From an uncultured Roseburia sp. (GTDB lineage Bacteria > Bacillota > Clostridia > Lachnospirales > Lachnospiraceae): a stretch of 64,000 nt of DNA. A program made the position numbers and the translations under genes. Shown piece after piece: positions 1-15,573 of the stretch (position 1 is the first letter of the stretch; every line of letters begins with the position of its first letter). Location: contig CAYPIB010000001.1 of assembly GCA_964410675.1 (NCBI GenBank), forward strand, positions 14,454 to 78,453, read 5' to 3'. The notes beneath the pieces are model-generated. The model made no database searches and was not told the origin of the DNA. It saw nothing but the letters and a program-made list of their open reading frames with translations.

Positions 1-30
1 TTAGAGTAATTAAAACATTTTTATGATATA

Positions 31-279
31 ACACTTCTCCTTTATTTAATTTCTCTTAATTAGGCGTTTGCAAAACCTATTTCTGAGTGTGGATTTCCCA
101 AACTGTACTTTGAAATGCCCTCTTTTCTATGGAAATGAGACCTTAAGGGGCTCCTAAAAGCATGAAGTCTTGCTGAATGCTTTTACGCTTAAGGGCTCAT
201 TGCAATGCTTAGAAAAACGGGCTTTCAAAGTACAGTTTGGGAGAGCCACACTCAGAAATCCGGCTTTCATTACTTAATC
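31..279 (-). repeat. Copy A of a ~250-nt intercistronic repeat unit: a long imperfect hairpin (arms 79-120 and 219-259) plus a Shine-Dalgarno block at the 31-45 end
   Basis: Aligns by eye over its whole length with 513-763. The arms ATTTCTGAGTGTGG..GCCC and GGGC..CCACACTCAGAAAT are reverse complements. Nested inner stems are AATGAGACCTTAAG/CTTAAGGGCTCATT and AAAAGCAT/ATGCTTTT. Confidence 0.85.
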
Positions 280-511
280 AATGGTGAAAATTCCTAAGCC
301 TTTCCTTATACTCCTTTGCAAGCTTCATATAATAACTCTGCTCCGTCTCCTTCATTTTCCCGTTCTGTATTTCTTCCTGCAAAATTTCTATATACTCTGC
401 TAAAGACATTTGCGCCGCATCCTTATAATTATTTTCAAAATTTGCCTGTATTGACTTCAACTTATCATTCAATTGCTTATTCTTCCCTTGCCTCCTGAGA
501 AAAATCATCAT
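278..511 (-). CDS. Hypothetical 77-aa Lys/Glu-rich protein, no family recognised, bracketed by the two hairpin repeats
   Basis: ORF track 278..514. The ATG at 511 lies 7 nt after AAAGGAG. Composition predicts a helical soluble protein with no TM segment. Confidence 0.5.
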   Translation of the reverse strand: MMIFLRRQGKNKQLNDKLKSIQANFENNYKDAAQMSLAEYIEILQEEIQNGKMKETEQSYYMKLAKEYKERLRNFHH

Positions 512-512
512 C

Positions 513-763
513 ACACTTCTCCTTTGTTTTATTTTCTTTTTTAGGCGTTTCCAAAACCTATTTCTGAGTGCGGCTCTCCCAAACTGTACTTTGAAATGCC
601 CTCTTTTCTATGGAAATGAGACATTAAGGGGCTCCTAAACGCATGAAGTCTTGCTGAATGCTTTTAGCACTTAAGGGCTCATTGCAATGTTCAGAAAAAC
701 GGGCTTTCAAAGTATTGTTTGGGAAAGCCGCACTCAGAAATCCGGCTTTCAAACCTACTTAAT
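513..763 (-). repeat. Copy B of the ~250-nt repeat unit (hairpin arms 560-601 and 701-741). It overlaps the ptsI stop codon.
   Basis: Same architecture as copy A. The ptsI TAG stop (755-757) lies inside the shared GATTAAGTA block. The shared AAAGGAGAAGTGT SD block sits at the other end. Confidence 0.85.
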
Positions 764-2365
764 CTCCCTTATCCTCTTCCTAAGCGGTAATATTAACGGC
801 GGTGATACTGAAATTTCATCGATATCCATCTTTAAAAATCTTTCAGTAAGTAAAATATCGGCACCTAGTTCACCACAAATCCCAACCTTTATCCCTTCCT
901 TATGACCATTTTGAATAACAATTTGAATTAATCTGAAAATCGCCTCATGATAAGCATCAAAGAATTGCTCCAGCTTTTCATTCTGTCTGTCAATGGCAAG
1001 TGTATACTGCGTCAGATCATTCGTTCCTATACTAAAGAAATCTACTTCCTTTGCCAAGAAGTCACTAATAAGCGCTGCCGCCGGAGTTTCAATCATAACT
1101 CCCTGTTCTATATTCCGATAAGAAATCTTTTCTTTTGTGAGTTCTTTTTTTACCTCCTCCAGCAGTTCCTTCACTTCGATTACTTCCTGCACCGAAATAA
1201 TCATTGGATATAAAATAGATATATTTCCAAAAGCACTTGCACGCAGAATGGCACGAAGCTGTGTTTTAAACATCTCTTTTCTTGTCAGGCAAACACGAAT
1301 TGCTCTGCATCCCATTGCTGGATTTTCCTCTTGCTCCAGCTTAAAATAATCTGCCTGTTTGTCCGCACCAATATCAAGCGTTCTAATTACAACTTTCTTT
1401 TCGCCCATTTTCTTGGCAGCTTCTTTATAAATAAGAAACTGCTCCTCTTCGGTCGGGTAATCAGATTTTTCTAAAAAAATAAATTCACTTCTAAAAAGGC
1501 CAATGCCCCCTGCATCATTATCTAAAACAGCCGTTAAATCGGATACATGACTAATATTGGCAAGCACATCTATTTTTTTACCCAATATCGTTATATTCTC
1601 TTTTCCTTTTAATTGCTTATATAAGTTTTGTTTTTCTAACTCTTTTTCTCTTTTTTCTTCGTATCGTTTCAGTGTTTTTTGATCCGGATCTATAAAAATC
1701 GTTCCGCTCTCGCCGTCTACAATACCTATTTTCCCATCCCATTCTGCATTAACATCCACATTAACCAGCCCGGGAATATTCATCATTCTTGTCAAAATTG
1801 CCGTATGTGAATTGGATGCACCTATTCTCGTAACAAAAGAAAGCACCTTATCTCTATCAAATTGTACCGTATCACTGGGTAATAAATTTTCGGCCACGAT
1901 GATAGATGGTTTTGTTAGAAAGTTAATATTTTTATGTCCTGTTAAATTATGAAGTATTCGGTCTGAAACATCCTTAATATCGGCAATCCGCGCTTTAAAG
2001 TACTCATCCTCCATATTCGAAAACATAGCTGAAAAATAATCGAGCGCACTTATGACTGCACACTCCGCATTCATGTTGTGTTGTTTTATTTTATTAATCG
2101 CAAAGTCATGATACTCTTCATCGGCAAGCATGATTGCATGTCCCTCAAAAATACGTGCGTTTGCCTCCCCCATTTCATTCAAAACTTTGTTATGGAGCTC
2201 TTTTATTTCCTTAAGTGCCTCTTGCTTTGCTTTTTCAAATCGTGTTACTTCTGCTTTTGTATCTTCGATTGGCTCACGATTAACAGCCTGTCGCTCCTTT
2301 GTATAAAAACTAATTGTACCAATCGCAATACCTTTAAAAATTGACTTACCATTATATATTTCCAT
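755..2365 (-). CDS. ptsI: Phosphoenolpyruvate-protein phosphotransferase (PTS enzyme I)
   Basis: Phospho-His region GASNSHTAILTRMMNIPG, a PEP-utilising C-terminal domain (IGTNDLTQY, GICGELGAD) and the expected length. The ORF is open to a GTG at 2401. I prefer the ATG at 2365, which follows GAGGA with a 7-nt spacer. Confidence 0.93.
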   Translation of the reverse strand: MEIYNGKSIFKGIAIGTISFYTKERQAVNREPIEDTKAEVTRFEKAKQEALKEIKELHNKVLNEMGEANARIFEGHAIMLADEEYHDFAINKIKQHNMNAECAVISALDYFSAMFSNMEDEYFKARIADIKDVSDRILHNLTGHKNINFLTKPSIIVAENLLPSDTVQFDRDKVLSFVTRIGASNSHTAILTRMMNIPGLVNVDVNAEWDGKIGIVDGESGTIFIDPDQKTLKRYEEKREKELEKQNLYKQLKGKENITILGKKIDVLANISHVSDLTAVLDNDAGGIGLFRSEFIFLEKSDYPTEEEQFLIYKEAAKKMGEKKVVIRTLDIGADKQADYFKLEQEENPAMGCRAIRVCLTRKEMFKTQLRAILRASAFGNISILYPMIISVQEVIEVKELLEEVKKELTKEKISYRNIEQGVMIETPAAALISDFLAKEVDFFSIGTNDLTQYTLAIDRQNEKLEQFFDAYHEAIFRLIQIVIQNGHKEGIKVGICGELGADILLTERFLKMDIDEISVSPPLILPLRKRIREIK

Positions 2366-2623
2366 ACTCTTATCCTCATTTAGCATTACTTTCTTTTTCA
2401 CTTGTGATACTATTATAAATTGTAACTGAAACTCTTTTATTTCTCAATTACAATATAACTTTTTCTTTACTTTTTTCTATTTACAATTCTATCCACTCTC
2501 ATTTACACTAATATTAAAGTTAGTGATTTGTTAATGTTTCACTTATCTTTACAAAGTCTTAATGTTAATATTTATATATTTGACTTATAATAAGGTATCA
2601 TTTTTTATTCAGGAGGTGATAAA

Positions 2624-5266
2624 GTGGCGGATATTTATTTAAATCAAGATAATAATGCTGACAAAAAGCGGGGACAACTTAAAATATTTTTTGGATATGC
2701 TGCCGGAGTCGGTAAAACATACTCTATGTTAAAAGCCGCTCATACTGCAAAACGTCATGGCATTGATGTGATTGCCGGTTATGTGGAAACTCACGAAAGA
2801 CCGCAGACCGCTGCTCTTCTTAATGGTTTGGAACAGCTTCCGCAAACGCCTTGCGAGTTAGATTTAGATGCTGTACTAAAACGAAATCCTCAATTAGTCA
2901 TTATTGATGAGCTTGCTCATACAAATGCCAAAGGATGCCGCCATGCAAAACGTTATCAAGATGTCGAGGAATTATTAAAAACCGGTATTAATGTTTATAC
3001 AACGGTAAATGTCCAGCATATTGAAAGCCTCAATGATATGGTAACTTCTATTACGGGCGTAATAGTTCAAGAAAGAATCCCGGATAAAGTTTTCGATTAT
3101 GCGACTCAGGTTGAACTTGTTGATATAGAACCGCAAGAATTAATAGAACGATTAACTGCCGGAAAAATTTATAAAACAGAAGCTCTAAAAGCTCTTGCTA
3201 ATTTTTTTAGCATTGAAAACTTAATTGCACTGCGTGAGATTGCCCTTAGAAGATGCGCTAATCGTGTAAATAAGATTTCCGAGATGGCAAGACTAAAAGG
3301 CAGCAGCGAGTATTTCACGGATGAACACATACTTGTCTGCCTCTCATCCTCCCCGACCAACCCAAAGATTATCCGCACTGCAGCAAGAATGGCGCATGCT
3401 TTTAAAGGAACCTTTACCGCTTTGTTTGTTGAAACACCCGAATTTTCTTCTATGAGTAAAGAAAATAAAAAAAGACTTCGTTCCAATATCCACCTTGCCG
3501 AGCAGCTTGGCGCTACGGTTGAAACAACTTATGGTGAGGATGCCGCTTTTCAGATTGCTGAATTTGCCCGGCTCTCCGGCGCTTCCAAAATAGTCGTCGG
3601 AAGAAATAATGTAAAAAGAAAATATTTTTTCAGTAAACCCTCTTTGACGGAGCGATTAACTGATTATGCCCCAAATTTAGATGTTTATATTATTCCCGAT
3701 ACAGAAACTTCCTTATATAAAGAAAAAAAGAAAAAGTTTAAAAAAGAGCAATTTGTACCAATGGATGTCCTAAAAAGTATTCTTATTTTATTAGCCGCTA
3801 CTATGATTGGTTTCCTCTTCTTTCAGTTTGGATTCAGTGAAGCTAATATTATGACTGTTTATATTTTAGGTGTTCTCTTTACTGCACTTATAACAACACA
3901 ACGTTTTTATGCTTTAATTTCATCTATCGTAAGTGTGCTGATTTTTAATTACTTGTTTACCGGAATTAGGTTTAGCTTCCGTTCTTACGAATCCGGTTAT
4001 CCGGCAACCTTTTTAACGATGTTTCTTTCTGCATTTATTACAGGTACTCTTGCCGTAAAGCTAAAACAGCATGCAAAACAGTCCGCACAGACTGCTTACC
4101 GTACTAAGGTGCTGCTTGATACGAATCAGCTCTTGCAGCAAGCGAAGGATAAAGACGAAATTATTTTGGTTACAGCAAGACAGTTAGTCAAACTTCTTGA
4201 TAAAGATATTATTTTTTATACTGCCCAAAAAGATCACTTAGCAAAACCTTGTATTTTTCCAACGCCGGACCACGAATCGAACGAAGACTATATAACTGTT
4301 AATGAGCAGGCAGTTGCTGCCTGGGTATTTAAAAATAATAAACATGCAGGTGCAACAACAGATACCCTTTCAAATTCAAAATGCCTTTATTTAGCCATTC
4401 GGGTAAATAATAATGTATATGGTGTTGTCGGTATTGTGCTTGAACATACCCCGCTTGAATCCTTTGAAAACAGCATTGTCCTCTCAATCTTAGGTGAATG
4501 TGCACTGGCGCTTGAAAACGAGCAGGTTGCTCAGGAAAAGGAACAGGCGGCTATTCTCGCTAAAAACGAACAGCTCCGTTCAAATCTTCTGCGTTCTATT
4601 TCGCATGATCTTAGAACTCCGCTTACTTCCATATCCGGAAATGCAGGAGTACTTTTATCAAATGAAGATGCTCTTAGTTCCTCAAAGAAAAAAGCGTTAT
4701 ACTCTGATATCTATGAGGATTCACTATGGCTGATCAACCTTGTGGAAAACCTTCTCTCCGTTACAAGGATTGAAGATGGAACAATGAATTTAACGTTCAC
4801 TGCTGAGCTTATCGATGAAGTTATTCGCGAATCACTGCATCATATCCGCCGAAAGAGTGAGGACTATCAAATTACAGTCCACGAGCCTGATGAGTATTTA
4901 TTGGCAAAGATGGATGCCCGCCTGATTGTGCAAGTCTTAATTAACCTTATAGACAATGCAATTAAATATACACCGAAAGGCTCTTCCATTATTATTACAT
5001 CGAGTAAGCAGGAAGACTTTGCCGTCATTGAAGTTGCCGATAACGGACCCGGAATCCAAAAGGAAGCCAAGCCACATATCTTTGAACTATTCTATACGGC
5101 TTCAACAAAAACGACTGACAGCCGAAGGGGGCTTGGTCTTGGACTCGCACTATGCAAATCCATCGTCAACGCTCATGGTGGTGAAATATCAGTCTGTGAT
5201 AACAAGCCCTGTGGGACTATTTTTCGTTTTACATTACCTGCTAAGGAGGTTAAAATTTATGAATAA
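2624..5266 (+). CDS. kdpD: Sensor histidine kinase KdpD (KdpD N-domain, Usp, 4 TM, GAF, HisKA, HATPase)
   Basis: Walker-like GYAAGVGKTYSM at the N-terminus, a central TM block, H-box SHDLRTPL, and DNGPGI and GLGLGLALC boxes. GTG start after AGGAGG. Confidence 0.93.
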   Translation: MADIYLNQDNNADKKRGQLKIFFGYAAGVGKTYSMLKAAHTAKRHGIDVIAGYVETHERPQTAALLNGLEQLPQTPCELDLDAVLKRNPQLVIIDELAHTNAKGCRHAKRYQDVEELLKTGINVYTTVNVQHIESLNDMVTSITGVIVQERIPDKVFDYATQVELVDIEPQELIERLTAGKIYKTEALKALANFFSIENLIALREIALRRCANRVNKISEMARLKGSSEYFTDEHILVCLSSSPTNPKIIRTAARMAHAFKGTFTALFVETPEFSSMSKENKKRLRSNIHLAEQLGATVETTYGEDAAFQIAEFARLSGASKIVVGRNNVKRKYFFSKPSLTERLTDYAPNLDVYIIPDTETSLYKEKKKKFKKEQFVPMDVLKSILILLAATMIGFLFFQFGFSEANIMTVYILGVLFTALITTQRFYALISSIVSVLIFNYLFTGIRFSFRSYESGYPATFLTMFLSAFITGTLAVKLKQHAKQSAQTAYRTKVLLDTNQLLQQAKDKDEIILVTARQLVKLLDKDIIFYTAQKDHLAKPCIFPTPDHESNEDYITVNEQAVAAWVFKNNKHAGATTDTLSNSKCLYLAIRVNNNVYGVVGIVLEHTPLESFENSIVLSILGECALALENEQVAQEKEQAAILAKNEQLRSNLLRSISHDLRTPLTSISGNAGVLLSNEDALSSSKKKALYSDIYEDSLWLINLVENLLSVTRIEDGTMNLTFTAELIDEVIRESLHHIRRKSEDYQITVHEPDEYLLAKMDARLIVQVLINLIDNAIKYTPKGSSIIITSSKQEDFAVIEVADNGPGIQKEAKPHIFELFYTASTKTTDSRRGLGLGLALCKSIVNAHGGEISVCDNKPCGTIFRFTLPAKEVKIYE

Positions 5267-10968: not shown

Positions 10969-11992
10969 CTCCAGGGATTCTTTTCACAATTTCATAGCAT
11001 AAAAATGTCAGTAAGATACTGCCGCACATAATTAAAATAACTTGAAGAAAAACAATATTCACAGCTTGTACAATAAAATAAGCAAGTGCAACAAGAATTG
11101 ACTGATGAAAAATATAGATGGGATACGATGCTGAATTTAAATATTTTGTTACTTTATTTTGAAAATTCAAATATTTTCTTCCCATCAGTAAAAGACTTAA
11201 AATGCCCATCCATCCAACAAAATTTACAAGCAAATCACCATAATAAGAAAATTTAAAATACGCAGCTACTAATACTGCCTCTGCTATAAAGAAAACAATA
11301 TAAATTATTATTTTAGATTTTTCCAGTTTCTTTATAATCTCGTCATTACTTAAAACATAATATCCCAGAAGATATAGTACAAGGTTTTTCCCGAGACTAA
11401 AACCGCCGAAATTACCAATAAAATACATTCCCCACACTAGCAAAAACATTCCACAAATCACAATATTGGGAAACTTCTCAATATGCCTGCTAACTTTTTT
11501 ATATGCAATTTTTCTTGTAATAACAAGGCTAAAAGTAGAGACAAGGAACAAAAACAATATAAACCACAAATGGCCCGGCGAAAAGCCGCCATCATATCCA
11601 CTAAAATCCGTCAAATGAGTGAAGAAATATAAAAGATTTTCTAAAAAGCTTCCTTCATAAGAAAAGAAAAACTTTCTGGCATAAAGTGTCTGAATCGGAA
11701 CGAGAAAAATAAGTCCGGCAATAAATGGAATGAGCAATTTCTTTACCCGTTCAGCTATGAACTCCCTTTGAGTTCGTTTTTCAAGTGCATATCTCGCACA
11801 CATCCCGGCTATCACAAACAAAATCGGCATAAACCAAGGATTTACAATGACGATGAAAGTACTAAGCAACCTGTTACCTCCCGGCCAGACATAAAACTTA
11901 GTGCCAAAATCATTGTAGACCATAAATGTATGTACCGGGAATAAAAGCATAATCATAAATATCCTTAAATTATCCAAATAAAATTTACGCAT
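10943..11992 (-). CDS. Acyltransferase family 3 (OatA-like) integral membrane protein
   Basis: N-terminus MRKFYLDNLRIFMIMLLFPVHT is typical of acyltransferase_3, with about 10 TM segments. The ATG at 11992 follows GGAAGGA. The track ORF extends to 12028. Confidence 0.85.
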   Translation of the reverse strand: MRKFYLDNLRIFMIMLLFPVHTFMVYNDFGTKFYVWPGGNRLLSTFIVIVNPWFMPILFVIAGMCARYALEKRTQREFIAERVKKLLIPFIAGLIFLVPIQTLYARKFFFSYEGSFLENLLYFFTHLTDFSGYDGGFSPGHLWFILFLFLVSTFSLVITRKIAYKKVSRHIEKFPNIVICGMFLLVWGMYFIGNFGGFSLGKNLVLYLLGYYVLSNDEIIKKLEKSKIIIYIVFFIAEAVLVAAYFKFSYYGDLLVNFVGWMGILSLLLMGRKYLNFQNKVTKYLNSASYPIYIFHQSILVALAYFIVQAVNIVFLQVILIMCGSILLTFLCYEIVKRIPGVRTLAGIK

Positions 11993-14388: not shown

Positions 14389-15573
14389 CTAACTATGCGC
14401 CGTTAAACGCTCCTTTACTTCTTCGTCCATTGCAATTTCTAAAATACGAATTTCTGTTTTTTTAATCAGTCTTAAAATATCTTCATTTCTTTCTTCCATC
14501 AAATAATAGACATAAATAATTGCAACATCCTGCCCCATATCTTTTAGATGGGCAAGGCTTTGATATAATTGACTCGTTAAACTATGGGTAATGACAAGGA
14601 TTGAATTATCTGTATACATACCTTTTTTACTGTCAAGCAATTCTCCTGCTGATACATCGGCACGAAAGTTAAGAGAAAAAGTACTTTCATAAAATCTTTG
14701 AAACTCCCTCAAATTCGAAATTTTCTCAGATATCGTTTGGGCCTGCATATAATTCAAGCTGCATGTCATGCCCTTAACACAATAAAAGTTCACTATTGCA
14801 ATCATAATTTCAAGTATTTTATCTTCTACAATAATTTTTTGACTTTCGCTTCCAAGGACTGGAGTAAATTCAGTATATATCTGAACCTCCGGCTCCGGAA
14901 TCTGGATATATTTTCTTGTCATCCACTCATTTCTCTTTGCTGAAGCTTTCCAATGAATCCTTTTTATACTATCGCCCCTGACATAATTTCTGACTTCCAT
15001 ATCAGGCTCATCATCACCACTCTTAGGAAAGAAGTGGATTTTATAATCGGAATCCGGAAACATGAGCGGAAACGTATCTATTTCTATAATTCTTGGCAAA
15101 ACCTGAATTGATAACTTCTCTTTAATTTTATAAGTCGTGCGAAATAAATATAAAAAATCAATAATTTCCACGGATTTTACACCAACATTATATTCTCCTC
15201 TATAATCACATGAAATTCTTGTTTTTACATCTATCTTCTGTTTTGGAAATAAGCAATATTCTTTCTTTTCATCGAGTTGGAATATTTTAGAATGATCATG
15301 AAAAAAATTAACTTTTATACTTTCAAATAATATAAATCCTTCATTCGCTAAATGAAAACCATATTCTGTCGTTTCACCTTTTACAATCTTTTTATTTTGC
15401 GTATATTGATACACTTTAAATGTTAAAAAAACAAAATTAGAATAACATAATGCCAATACCGGAATACATAAAGAAAAGTAAAAAAGTGCATATGAAATAG
15501 TGCCACCATAATTGCTGACTAAGATTCCACTCGCTATGATAAAGGCTGCTGCAAGTACCCTGTTTTTCCACAT
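14389..15573 (-). CDS. DUF58 domain protein
   Basis: Motif VRNYVRGDSIKRIHWKASAK, N-terminal TM helices, and a position between the MoxR ATPase and the transglutaminase gene. Confidence 0.85.
   Translation of the reverse strand: MWKNRVLAAAFIIASGILVSNYGGTISYALFYFSLCIPVLALCYSNFVFLTFKVYQYTQNKKIVKGETTEYGFHLANEGFILFESIKVNFFHDHSKIFQLDEKKEYCLFPKQKIDVKTRISCDYRGEYNVGVKSVEIIDFLYLFRTTYKIKEKLSIQVLPRIIEIDTFPLMFPDSDYKIHFFPKSGDDEPDMEVRNYVRGDSIKRIHWKASAKRNEWMTRKYIQIPEPEVQIYTEFTPVLGSESQKIIVEDKILEIMIAIVNFYCVKGMTCSLNYMQAQTISEKISNLREFQRFYESTFSLNFRADVSAGELLDSKKGMYTDNSILVITHSLTSQLYQSLAHLKDMGQDVAIIYVYYLMEERNEDILRLIKKTEIRILEIAMDEEVKERLTAHS

Follow-up and report, generated by a model that had tools for sequence, protein, structure and literature searches.

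Two copies of a long palindromic element lie just downstream of ptsI in the stretch of DNA analysed here, 64,000 nucleotides from an uncultured Roseburia sp. (contig CAYPIB010000001.1, positions 14,454 to 78,453; hereafter the window, G+C 36%). The element probably represents an undescribed family of non-coding, full-length-palindromic repeats, similar to MITEs (transposable elements of miniature size with inverted repeats), that occurs in some gut Clostridia. It is most likely an ordinary kind of selfish DNA with unusual habits, rather than a new regulatory RNA. We favour the MITE-like reading because the element is small and non-coding, has inverted ends and flanking TA dinucleotides, is dispersed beside unrelated genes in other lineages, and shows both insertion polymorphism and deletion derivatives. 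An earlier sequence-only reading of the same DNA had put forward three candidate explanations, one of which was a MITE-like palindromic mobile element; this is the one of the three that we prefer.

Prokaryotic MITEs are 50-800 bp long, non-coding and mainly intergenic, with terminal inverted repeats of at least 10-15 bp and short flanking repeats (PMC11602168); a target-site duplication of 2-10 bp was taken as the criterion here. Like them, the present element is short (208-376 bp overall, ~210 bp in the window and up to ~375 bp elsewhere), non-coding and mainly intergenic, and has inverted ends and short flanking repeats. It differs from the generic MITE in that its arms covary between copies rather than being conserved, and in that no cognate transposase was identified.

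The two copies in the window

Two units of about 250 nt had been said to align end to end, and they do: blastn of the unit against the window pairs 28-279 with 510-764 at 90.6% identity over 256 nt, and a repeat finder run on the window reports the same pair as direct repeats (D1-D3) at a spacing of 481-482. No other long repeat and no third copy was found within the 64 kb by blastn or with R1, a covariance model of the element's core that is described below. By blastn, each unit can also be aligned with the reverse complement of itself (74-76% over ~190 nt). According to the repeat finder, the arms of copy A (79-125/213-259) are 87% complementary and those of copy B (547-606/695-754) 78%. Folded as RNA, copy A reaches -106.2 kcal/mol (z -11.5) and copy B -101.6 kcal/mol (z -8.9), values that 0 of 200 shuffles equalled in either case, and each copy gives an imperfect hairpin of ~95 bp. 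The long hairpin proposed from the sequence alone is thus real in both copies, but its extent was underestimated, for the palindrome runs from about 63 to 270 in copy A and from about 544 to 755 in copy B.

On the minus strand, on which the genes of this locus lie, copy B (544..755) is preceded by TA, begins with GGTTTGAAAGCCGGATTTC and ends with GAAATAGGTTTTGGAAACGCC, after which TA follows again; its first base is the G of the ptsI stop codon TAG. Its limits are set by the sequence, the inverted-repeat arms, the fold and this stop-codon junction. Copy A (63..270, minus strand) is delimited by its arms and fold and has TA at 61-62 and 271-272. The element is non-coding: of the open stretches in all six frames, the longest has 44 codons.

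The first evidence offered for a maintained structure was a single compensated pair in the outer stem, T90:A248 in copy A becoming C571:G730 in copy B. The coordinates and letters of this change are correct. Comparison with relatives shows T:A to be ancestral, so both sides changed in copy B. The remaining stem differences between the copies are mostly one-sided: one pair went from C.T to C-G, another from C.A to U.G by two independent single changes, and two pairs are broken in copy B. Because most of the other differences are one-sided, the lone compensated pair is thin evidence.

A core shared by three lineages

The part of the element that can be followed beyond the window is its apical core, ~95 nt long. 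Three lineages have conserved it: the window clade; a Lachnospiraceae metagenome-assembled genome (MAG), LOHA17_bin.039 (L079; PtsI 59% identical to the window's), with two copies; and six human-faecal scaffolds with at least seven copies in the neighbourhood of unrelated housekeeping genes. In the window the core occupies 118..220 in copy A and 599..702 in copy B, on the plus strand in both and hence antisense to ptsI in copy B. The cmsearch scores with R1 for the plus strand are 90 bits (copy A) and 93 bits (copy B), against 23 and 16 bits, respectively, for the minus strand.

An nhmmer profile of copies A and B, run on 1.4 Mb of loci, matched L079 with E = 7e-4, and a core-only profile matched a second copy there. 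The two L079 copies are hairpins of ~230-250 nt, 2.6 kb apart and with different flanks (copy 1, -107.9 kcal/mol, z -13; copy 2, -109.7 kcal/mol, z -11), and they score 104 and 107 bits with R1. Copy 1 is found ~180 nt past ptsI, upstream of a gene read as chemotaxis-receptor-like from its sequence alone; copy 2 separates a histidine kinase gene, also recognised from sequence, from a response-regulator gene identified by Pfam. Only the ~95-nt apical core can be aligned between the L079 and window copies, the outer stems being unrelated in sequence. Both L079 copies are preceded by -10-like boxes (11745-11775, plus strand, TATGAT with TTTACA 18 nt upstream; 14600-14625, minus strand, a perfect TATAAT), from which transcription might run into the hairpin and on into the gene downstream. 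The window copies have no box of this kind ahead of them on either strand.

The L079 hairpin, used as a blastn query against a phage collection, matched MT840076 (L141), and R1 confirmed the match with 51.8 bits; this hairpin is ~340 nt long (-166.5 kcal/mol, z -15.9). The L141 copy, used as a query in turn, retrieved five more scaffolds from the same Mexican human faecal data set (L142-L146: MT839189, MT836425, MT837551, MT839895 and MT837144). The six scaffolds, which possibly come from more than one genome, carry at least seven copies that are 74-92% identical and have unrelated flanks, four of them at scaffold ends. They adjoin genes for EPSP synthase, RecD2 helicase, serine dehydratase, an Fe-alcohol dehydrogenase and a DUF4097 protein. 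The L142 copy scores 50 bits with R1, and the copies of L143 and L145, in which the apical stem is gone and part of one arm is missing, score 33-34 bits. Taken together, the gene contexts vary: copies are found after stop codons, before gene starts, and between convergent as well as divergent genes. Counting copies of the unit by blastn had been proposed as a check on mobility; within the window it finds the two local copies only, and the related lineages supply the further copies at unrelated loci.

It is of note that the GenBank records of the six scaffolds bear the label "UNVERIFIED: Bacteriophage sp.", their source being a human faecal virome. No phage genes were found among the open reading frames (ORFs) scanned, which encode bacterial proteins (a GNAT acetyltransferase, LiaF, LytTR, EPSP synthase, RecD2, serine dehydratase, the Fe-alcohol dehydrogenase, an aminotransferase and a RelB/ParE pair). 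These are probably pieces of bacterial DNA carried into the virome. One of the scaffolds, L146, has in addition a separate 77-nt palindrome at 3144-3219 that is 88% self-complementary and matches R1 weakly (14 bits, E 0.2). This may be a relative in a very degraded state or else a hairpin without any relation.

Is the element simply a terminator hairpin of ptsI that has grown, been duplicated in tandem and never moved? The element does occupy the site at which relatives have their ordinary post-ptsI terminators, a short form in the relative L031 looks like a hairpin followed by UUUU, and copy A is a local duplicate. The homologous cores beside unrelated genes in two other lineages contradict this explanation, the element is absent from a relative whose PtsI is 81% identical, and neither window copy has the make-up of an intrinsic terminator (see below). 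We regard a purely local origin as very improbable indeed.

Ends and flanking dinucleotides

The ends are best seen in the faecal copies. Their terminus has the form AATCTGC-N15-AAACTCCGGTT, with TA within 0-1 nt at all eight of the ends examined, and at the left end TA is followed by ACCCGGAGTT. The inverted ends, A(A/C)CCGGAGTT and AAACTCCGGTT, are conserved. The whole element is an inverted repeat, and among the faecal copies terminal repeats of at least 10-15 bp are conserved, as in MITEs; the L079 copies differ from each other in their outermost ~10 nt. Copy B of the window reads GG...CC between its two TA dinucleotides, and its AAGCCGGATTTC resembles the faecal AACCCGGAGTTC. The L079 copies have no clear flanking TA. 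The sequence-only reading had taken many copies with target-site duplications as the mark of a plain MITE; copies of this kind are seen in a related lineage, at least seven on six scaffolds beside unrelated genes, with conserved inverted ends and flanking TA as the putative duplication.

Gain, loss and decay in close relatives

Homologues of the window's PtsI are found at 100%, 94% and 81% identity and then at 61% or less, and the closest GTDB representative genome has a PtsI that is 60% identical, so the lineage is thinly sampled. With R1 the element was found at one of 67 other ptsI loci, and no additional copy was found across 1.19 Mb of ptsI neighbourhoods.

Three loci, L031, L032 and L121, have ptsI DNA ~93% identical to that of the window. 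All three carry a short hairpin with a 19-bp stem at the site of copy B (1486-1541 in L031, 857-912 in L032 and 5662-5717 in L121), and none of them has an element at the site of copy A. The short form equals the long form minus everything between two AGCC repeats, exactly, and leaves a perfect 19-bp stem; it is a textbook case of slipped-mispairing deletion in a long palindrome. A fourth locus, L033, has the long form at the B site and nothing at the A site. In the relative with the 81% identical PtsI (L122) both the element and the small ORF that follows it in the window are absent, and ptsI leads straight to a promoter region with two LexA-type boxes and then a radical-SAM gene. Insertion polymorphism of the kind seen with MITEs is therefore present in two forms, L122 lacking the element and L031, L032 and L033 lacking copy A.

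The element also affects assembly. The Logan contig of the same strain (L120) ends 78 nt inside the hairpin, at 11710, and short-read assemblies likewise break in the element at the start of L033, at the starts of L142, L144 and L146, and at the end of L143. Given such breaks, MAGs probably under-represent both the copies and the sequences next to them.

Copy A as a duplicate of the copy B locus

Copy A is not the product of a transposition of its own. The alignment of the two copies extends beyond the palindrome on both sides of copy A. The flank at 28..62 (minus strand; repeat D3 pairs 28-52 with 510-534) holds a relic of the small ORF's ribosome-binding site, AAGGAGAAGTGT, at 31-42 on the minus strand; no start codon is suitably spaced from it. 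The flank at 271..278 (minus strand), ATTAAGTA, consists of the last two codons of ptsI plus the TA of its stop, placed after the TGA of the small ORF. Because these last two ptsI codons and the ribosome-binding site came along, copy A is a segmental copy of the whole B locus. The alleles in its 3' arm match the copy at the ptsI site of L033 and not copy B (GGGAAATCCACAC versus GGGAGAGCCGCAC), which suggests that copy A was derived from a diverged allele or that conversion came later.

Conservation of the core and a possible functional RNA

The pattern of conservation in the element is unusual for a MITE. In an alignment of the core from five copies in three lineages, 89.7% of the cells are paired, and 14 of the 31 pairs show two-sided changes. 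None of 500 shuffles reached the observed values, and slid controls gave at most three covarying pairs, with the caveat that the alignment was fitted to the model and that the independent lineages number only three. In L079 the cores of the two copies are 93% identical, while either arm is only 64% identical; nine pairs in these arms have changed on both sides and are still paired. The earlier suggestion that pairing itself is maintained is thereby upheld on far stronger grounds than the single pair on which it was based.

The position of the element relative to genes is also unusual. In gene-sense orientation, its start coincides exactly with the native stop codon of the gene upstream at five of seven proximal ends, the genes being those for PtsI, EPSP synthase, RecD2 helicase, serine dehydratase and the Fe-alcohol dehydrogenase. 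That these stops are native is illustrated by the Fe-alcohol dehydrogenase, where the Pfam match reaches the last residue, and by PtsI, whose C-terminus aligns with those of relatives that have no element. At a sixth junction the TAA is mutated, so that the gene continues for 12 nt inside the element. In all six of these copies the core is antisense to the abutting gene. The L079 cores, at 30 nt and ~180 nt from the stop codon, are sense to their flanking genes. By a rough estimate, the stop codon's own TA would be struck in 5-10% of TA-targeted insertions.

Could the element be a functional structured RNA module that resides in the 3' untranslated region of the upstream gene or between cistrons, works through its apical core (perhaps a domain, set on a long stem that stabilises it, for protein binding or RNase processing), and spread by duplication because it is useful rather than selfish? 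We consider this unlikely. The core is kept across three lineages while the basal stems diverge with their pairing held, the two-sided compensations in the L079 arms have the same tenor, six copies share one orientation relative to the abutting gene, with the junction placed at the stop codon, and the gene-sense strand folds better in three of the four window and L079 copies. On the other hand, the L079 cores have the opposite orientation relative to their flanking genes; counts of G-U versus A-C pairs, which should point to the functional strand, are inconsistent between copies, the faecal ones included; the core-deleted copies of L143 and L145 persist; L031 keeps just a 19-bp stem at the same site; and the gene contexts are heterogeneous. 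The covariation itself carries the caveat already given about the alignment and the number of lineages. Moreover, arm-to-arm correction in a DNA palindrome can give the same pattern, so covariation is no proof of an RNA function: a conserved centre with covarying arms would be explicable either by selection for the hairpin or by such correction with no RNA function at all. The conserved centre, the stop-codon junctions and the orientation bias nevertheless keep the RNA module alive as an explanation.

A bolder variant, which we hold to be distinctly unlikely, is a mobile "3'-end module". Here a hairpin with an apical RNA domain would land, or be retained, at native stop codons in one orientation and supply the TAA or TAG from its own terminus, so giving the housekeeping genes ptsI, aroA, recD2, sdaA and adh a new transcript end with a defined structure for protein or RNase binding. 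If true, this would amount to a transposable post-transcriptional control element in gut Clostridia.

We return to the MITE-like reading, against which several of the observations weigh. The conserved centre with its compensating arms agrees less well with a MITE in decay than with a structure under selection. Between the two L079 copies the outermost ~10 nt differ, yet each copy is palindromic to the tip, the opposite of what is expected of transposase-bound ends. Stop-codon junctions and fixed orientation are not predicted by simple TA-targeted transposition, and the TA flanks are no more than a putative target duplication. The window, L079 and L141-L146 yielded no transposase or parent insertion sequence whose ends match. 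Finally, the 64 kb of the window hold only two local copies, the dispersal being seen in other lineages. As for the ~95-nt apical core, it is probably needed for the element's own propagation or for protein binding.

Searches for known elements and a DNA-level alternative

That no known RNA family is involved had been surmised from the sequence, and covariance-model scans agree: across the window, L079 and L141 no Rfam family, be it 6S RNA, riboswitch, T-box, ribozyme or large non-coding RNA, reached its gathering threshold, and the window copies had no match even at E up to 10. The matches below threshold were only to generic microRNA hairpins. Exact seeds from the outer arms gave no match in GTDB representative genomes, 29 in JGI metagenomes, all of them due to chance as judged by blastn, and one chance match in IMG/VR, where five further patterns (ends, core and faecal-type ends) gave none or chance matches only. 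Copy A had no blastn match in the phage and plasmid collections, nor did the L079 and L141 hairpins in the plasmid collection. A search of 5.8 billion proteins with the six-frame translation of the element had no matches and is uninformative, the window copies not being called as genes there either. A literature search with keywords and sequence strings did not find the element described.

A hairpin can also act as DNA, and a single-strand origin, an attC-like site, or a transposon hairpin of the IS200/IS605 or REP/RAYT type would all be long structures, with the orientation bias then reflecting the direction of replication. The long, orientation-biased hairpin with its conserved tip is compatible with this; the L141 copy adjoins a disrupted tyrosine recombinase gene and the RelB/ParE pair, and in the window the small ORF sits between two direct copies, cassette-like. 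The gene lists, however, show no integrase, Rep, RAYT or TnpA gene beside the copies in the window or in L079; at the ends there are inverted repeats with TA and not the R'/R'' boxes (GTTRRRY) of attC; in relatives a hairpin precedes the ORF and none follows it, the reverse of an ORF-attC cassette; and there is no match in the plasmid collection. A DNA-level site of this kind seems improbable to us. No integrase appears in the ORF list of the window, which is the only basis for that statement as the whole window was not Pfam-scanned.

Several specific candidates were weighed on the anatomy of the element and dropped, namely 6S RNA, SRP RNA, the hammerhead ribozyme, the ssoA single-strand origin and attC: no Rfam family matches, and for each of them the conserved motifs or the ends are wrong. 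For an integron attC or cassette in particular, the ends, which read GGTTTG and ACCGGAG directly after TA, are not the R''/R' sites RYYYAAC and GTTRRRY, and the hairpin that relatives carry is upstream of the ORF only, whereas an attC lies downstream of its ORF.

Comparison with known intergenic repeats

In its behaviour the element resembles the Correia, ERIC, RUP, BOX and bcr1 repeats. Correia elements (CREE/NEMIS) of Neisseria are short, non-coding and intergenic near gene ends, with inverted ends and flanking TA. They are co-transcribed, their ends pair to form a hairpin, and they have a central IHF-binding site and internal-deletion variants. The present element is likewise a short, non-coding sequence near gene ends that has inverted ends, flanking TA and internal-deletion variants. 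It has no sequence relationship to Correia elements, however, its host belongs to another phylum, and it is longer (210-375 bp versus 105-155 bp); it is palindromic throughout, where Correia elements have 26-bp ends, and its centre is more conserved than its ends.

ERIC (IRU) elements are 127-bp intergenic repeats of enterobacteria, reported to affect the stability of flanking mRNA. They share with the present element a full-length imperfect palindrome, a conserved central core, location in intergenic regions that are transcribed (probably so here) and either orientation across genomes, but they are confined to Enterobacteria and Vibrio and are of another sequence and size, and they do not share its stop-codon junction and TA flanks. 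The repeats bcr1 of the Bacillus cereus group and RUP and BOX of Streptococcus pneumoniae are non-coding Firmicute repeats that form stable hairpins, are located mostly between genes or at their 3' ends and are co-transcribed with the genes. RUP duplicates TA. They have no sequence similarity to the present element and are 107-200 bp long with conserved ends, in contrast to its much longer stem and conserved apical domain.

If the MITE-like reading is right, it adds a repeat family to the Lachnospiraceae-like gut Clostridia, whose mobile non-coding DNA is hardly described, and it accounts for the breaking of assemblies of these genomes at the ptsI locus. It would also caution that what stands out as a "structured RNA with covariation" can turn out to be a DNA element that is palindromic. 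The conserved centre, the stop-codon junctions and the fixed orientation could in turn reveal a rewiring of the 3' ends of core-metabolic genes such as ptsI.

The ptsI locus and its transcription

The position downstream of ptsI had been recognised correctly. Read along the minus strand, which carries the genes, ptsI is followed by copy B, a ribosome-binding site, a 77-aa ORF and, last, copy A. The ptsI gene (755..2386, minus strand) encodes phosphotransferase system (PTS) enzyme I of 543 aa, which is 100% identical to protein P0018 and has the Pfam domains listed for L120. Its native TAG stop at 755-757 is the junction with copy B, where ATT AAG TA is followed by G GTTTGAAAGCCGG. The far end of copy B reads GGAAACGCC and then TA, and 19 nt beyond it stands the AAGGAG ribosome-binding site (519..524, minus strand) of the 77-aa ORF (278..511, minus strand), a conserved small protein with no Pfam domain.

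A scan of 1-800 found no sigma-70-like promoter and no canonical T-run terminator in or between the copies, in keeping with the lack of a T-run noted before. At its base the stem is AU-rich, and no more than UUUU comes after it, which itself pairs with an upstream AAAG; the structure thus falls short of an intrinsic terminator. Since neither a promoter nor a canonical terminator was found and both copies lie between co-directional genes, they are probably co-transcribed with ptsI and the 77-aa ORF.

Once co-transcribed, each copy would form an imperfect RNA hairpin of ~95 bp. This could act as a barrier at the 3' end, as a partial terminator or as a target of a double-strand-specific RNase (RNase III), and would so uncouple ptsI from the downstream genes. 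Actions of this sort are reported for Correia, ERIC and BOX elements. By analogy with these, we infer a candidate role for the hairpin at the RNA level, as a 3' hairpin or in processing.

Two broader roles were considered for the hairpin and rejected. It is not a leader tied to the 77-aa ORF, as distant homologues of this ORF directly follow a glycerate kinase gene and have no hairpin. Nor is it a conserved post-ptsI feature across Lachnospiraceae, as relatives have ordinary terminators and a homologue is found only in L079.

One further relation between the copies concerns the arms that face the small ORF. The copy A arm at 213-259, beside the ORF stop, and the copy B arm at 560-606, beside the ORF start, are 89% complementary, more than the arms within either copy (87% and 78%). 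If these two arms paired with each other in a transcript, as they could, the 77-aa ORF would be looped out between them; alternatively, their complementarity may be a mere record of recombination between the copies.

Neighbouring genes

No tRNA gene was found in the whole 64-kb window. The 77-aa ORF belongs to a family of proteins of 77-84 aa with ~50% identity and no Pfam domain. In other Lachnospiraceae (L034-L052) its homologues have a glycerate kinase gene directly upstream and a DUF6472 gene downstream. In the window clade the ORF has been relocated behind ptsI, and the relative with the 81% identical PtsI has no such ORF at that position.

In relatives, the gene that follows ptsI or the small ORF, at a place that in the source genome falls just outside the start of the window, encodes a 453-aa radical-SAM/HHH protein. 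Its promoter region contains two Cheo-box-like LexA sites, GAACATATGTAC and GAACGTAAGTTC (1868-1925 in L031, 404-440 in L033 and 4369-4410 in L122), and in L122 the next gene encodes a DUF4130 protein. From their sequence and arrangement, the radical-SAM/HHH and DUF4130 genes look like an SOS-regulated DNA-repair pair.

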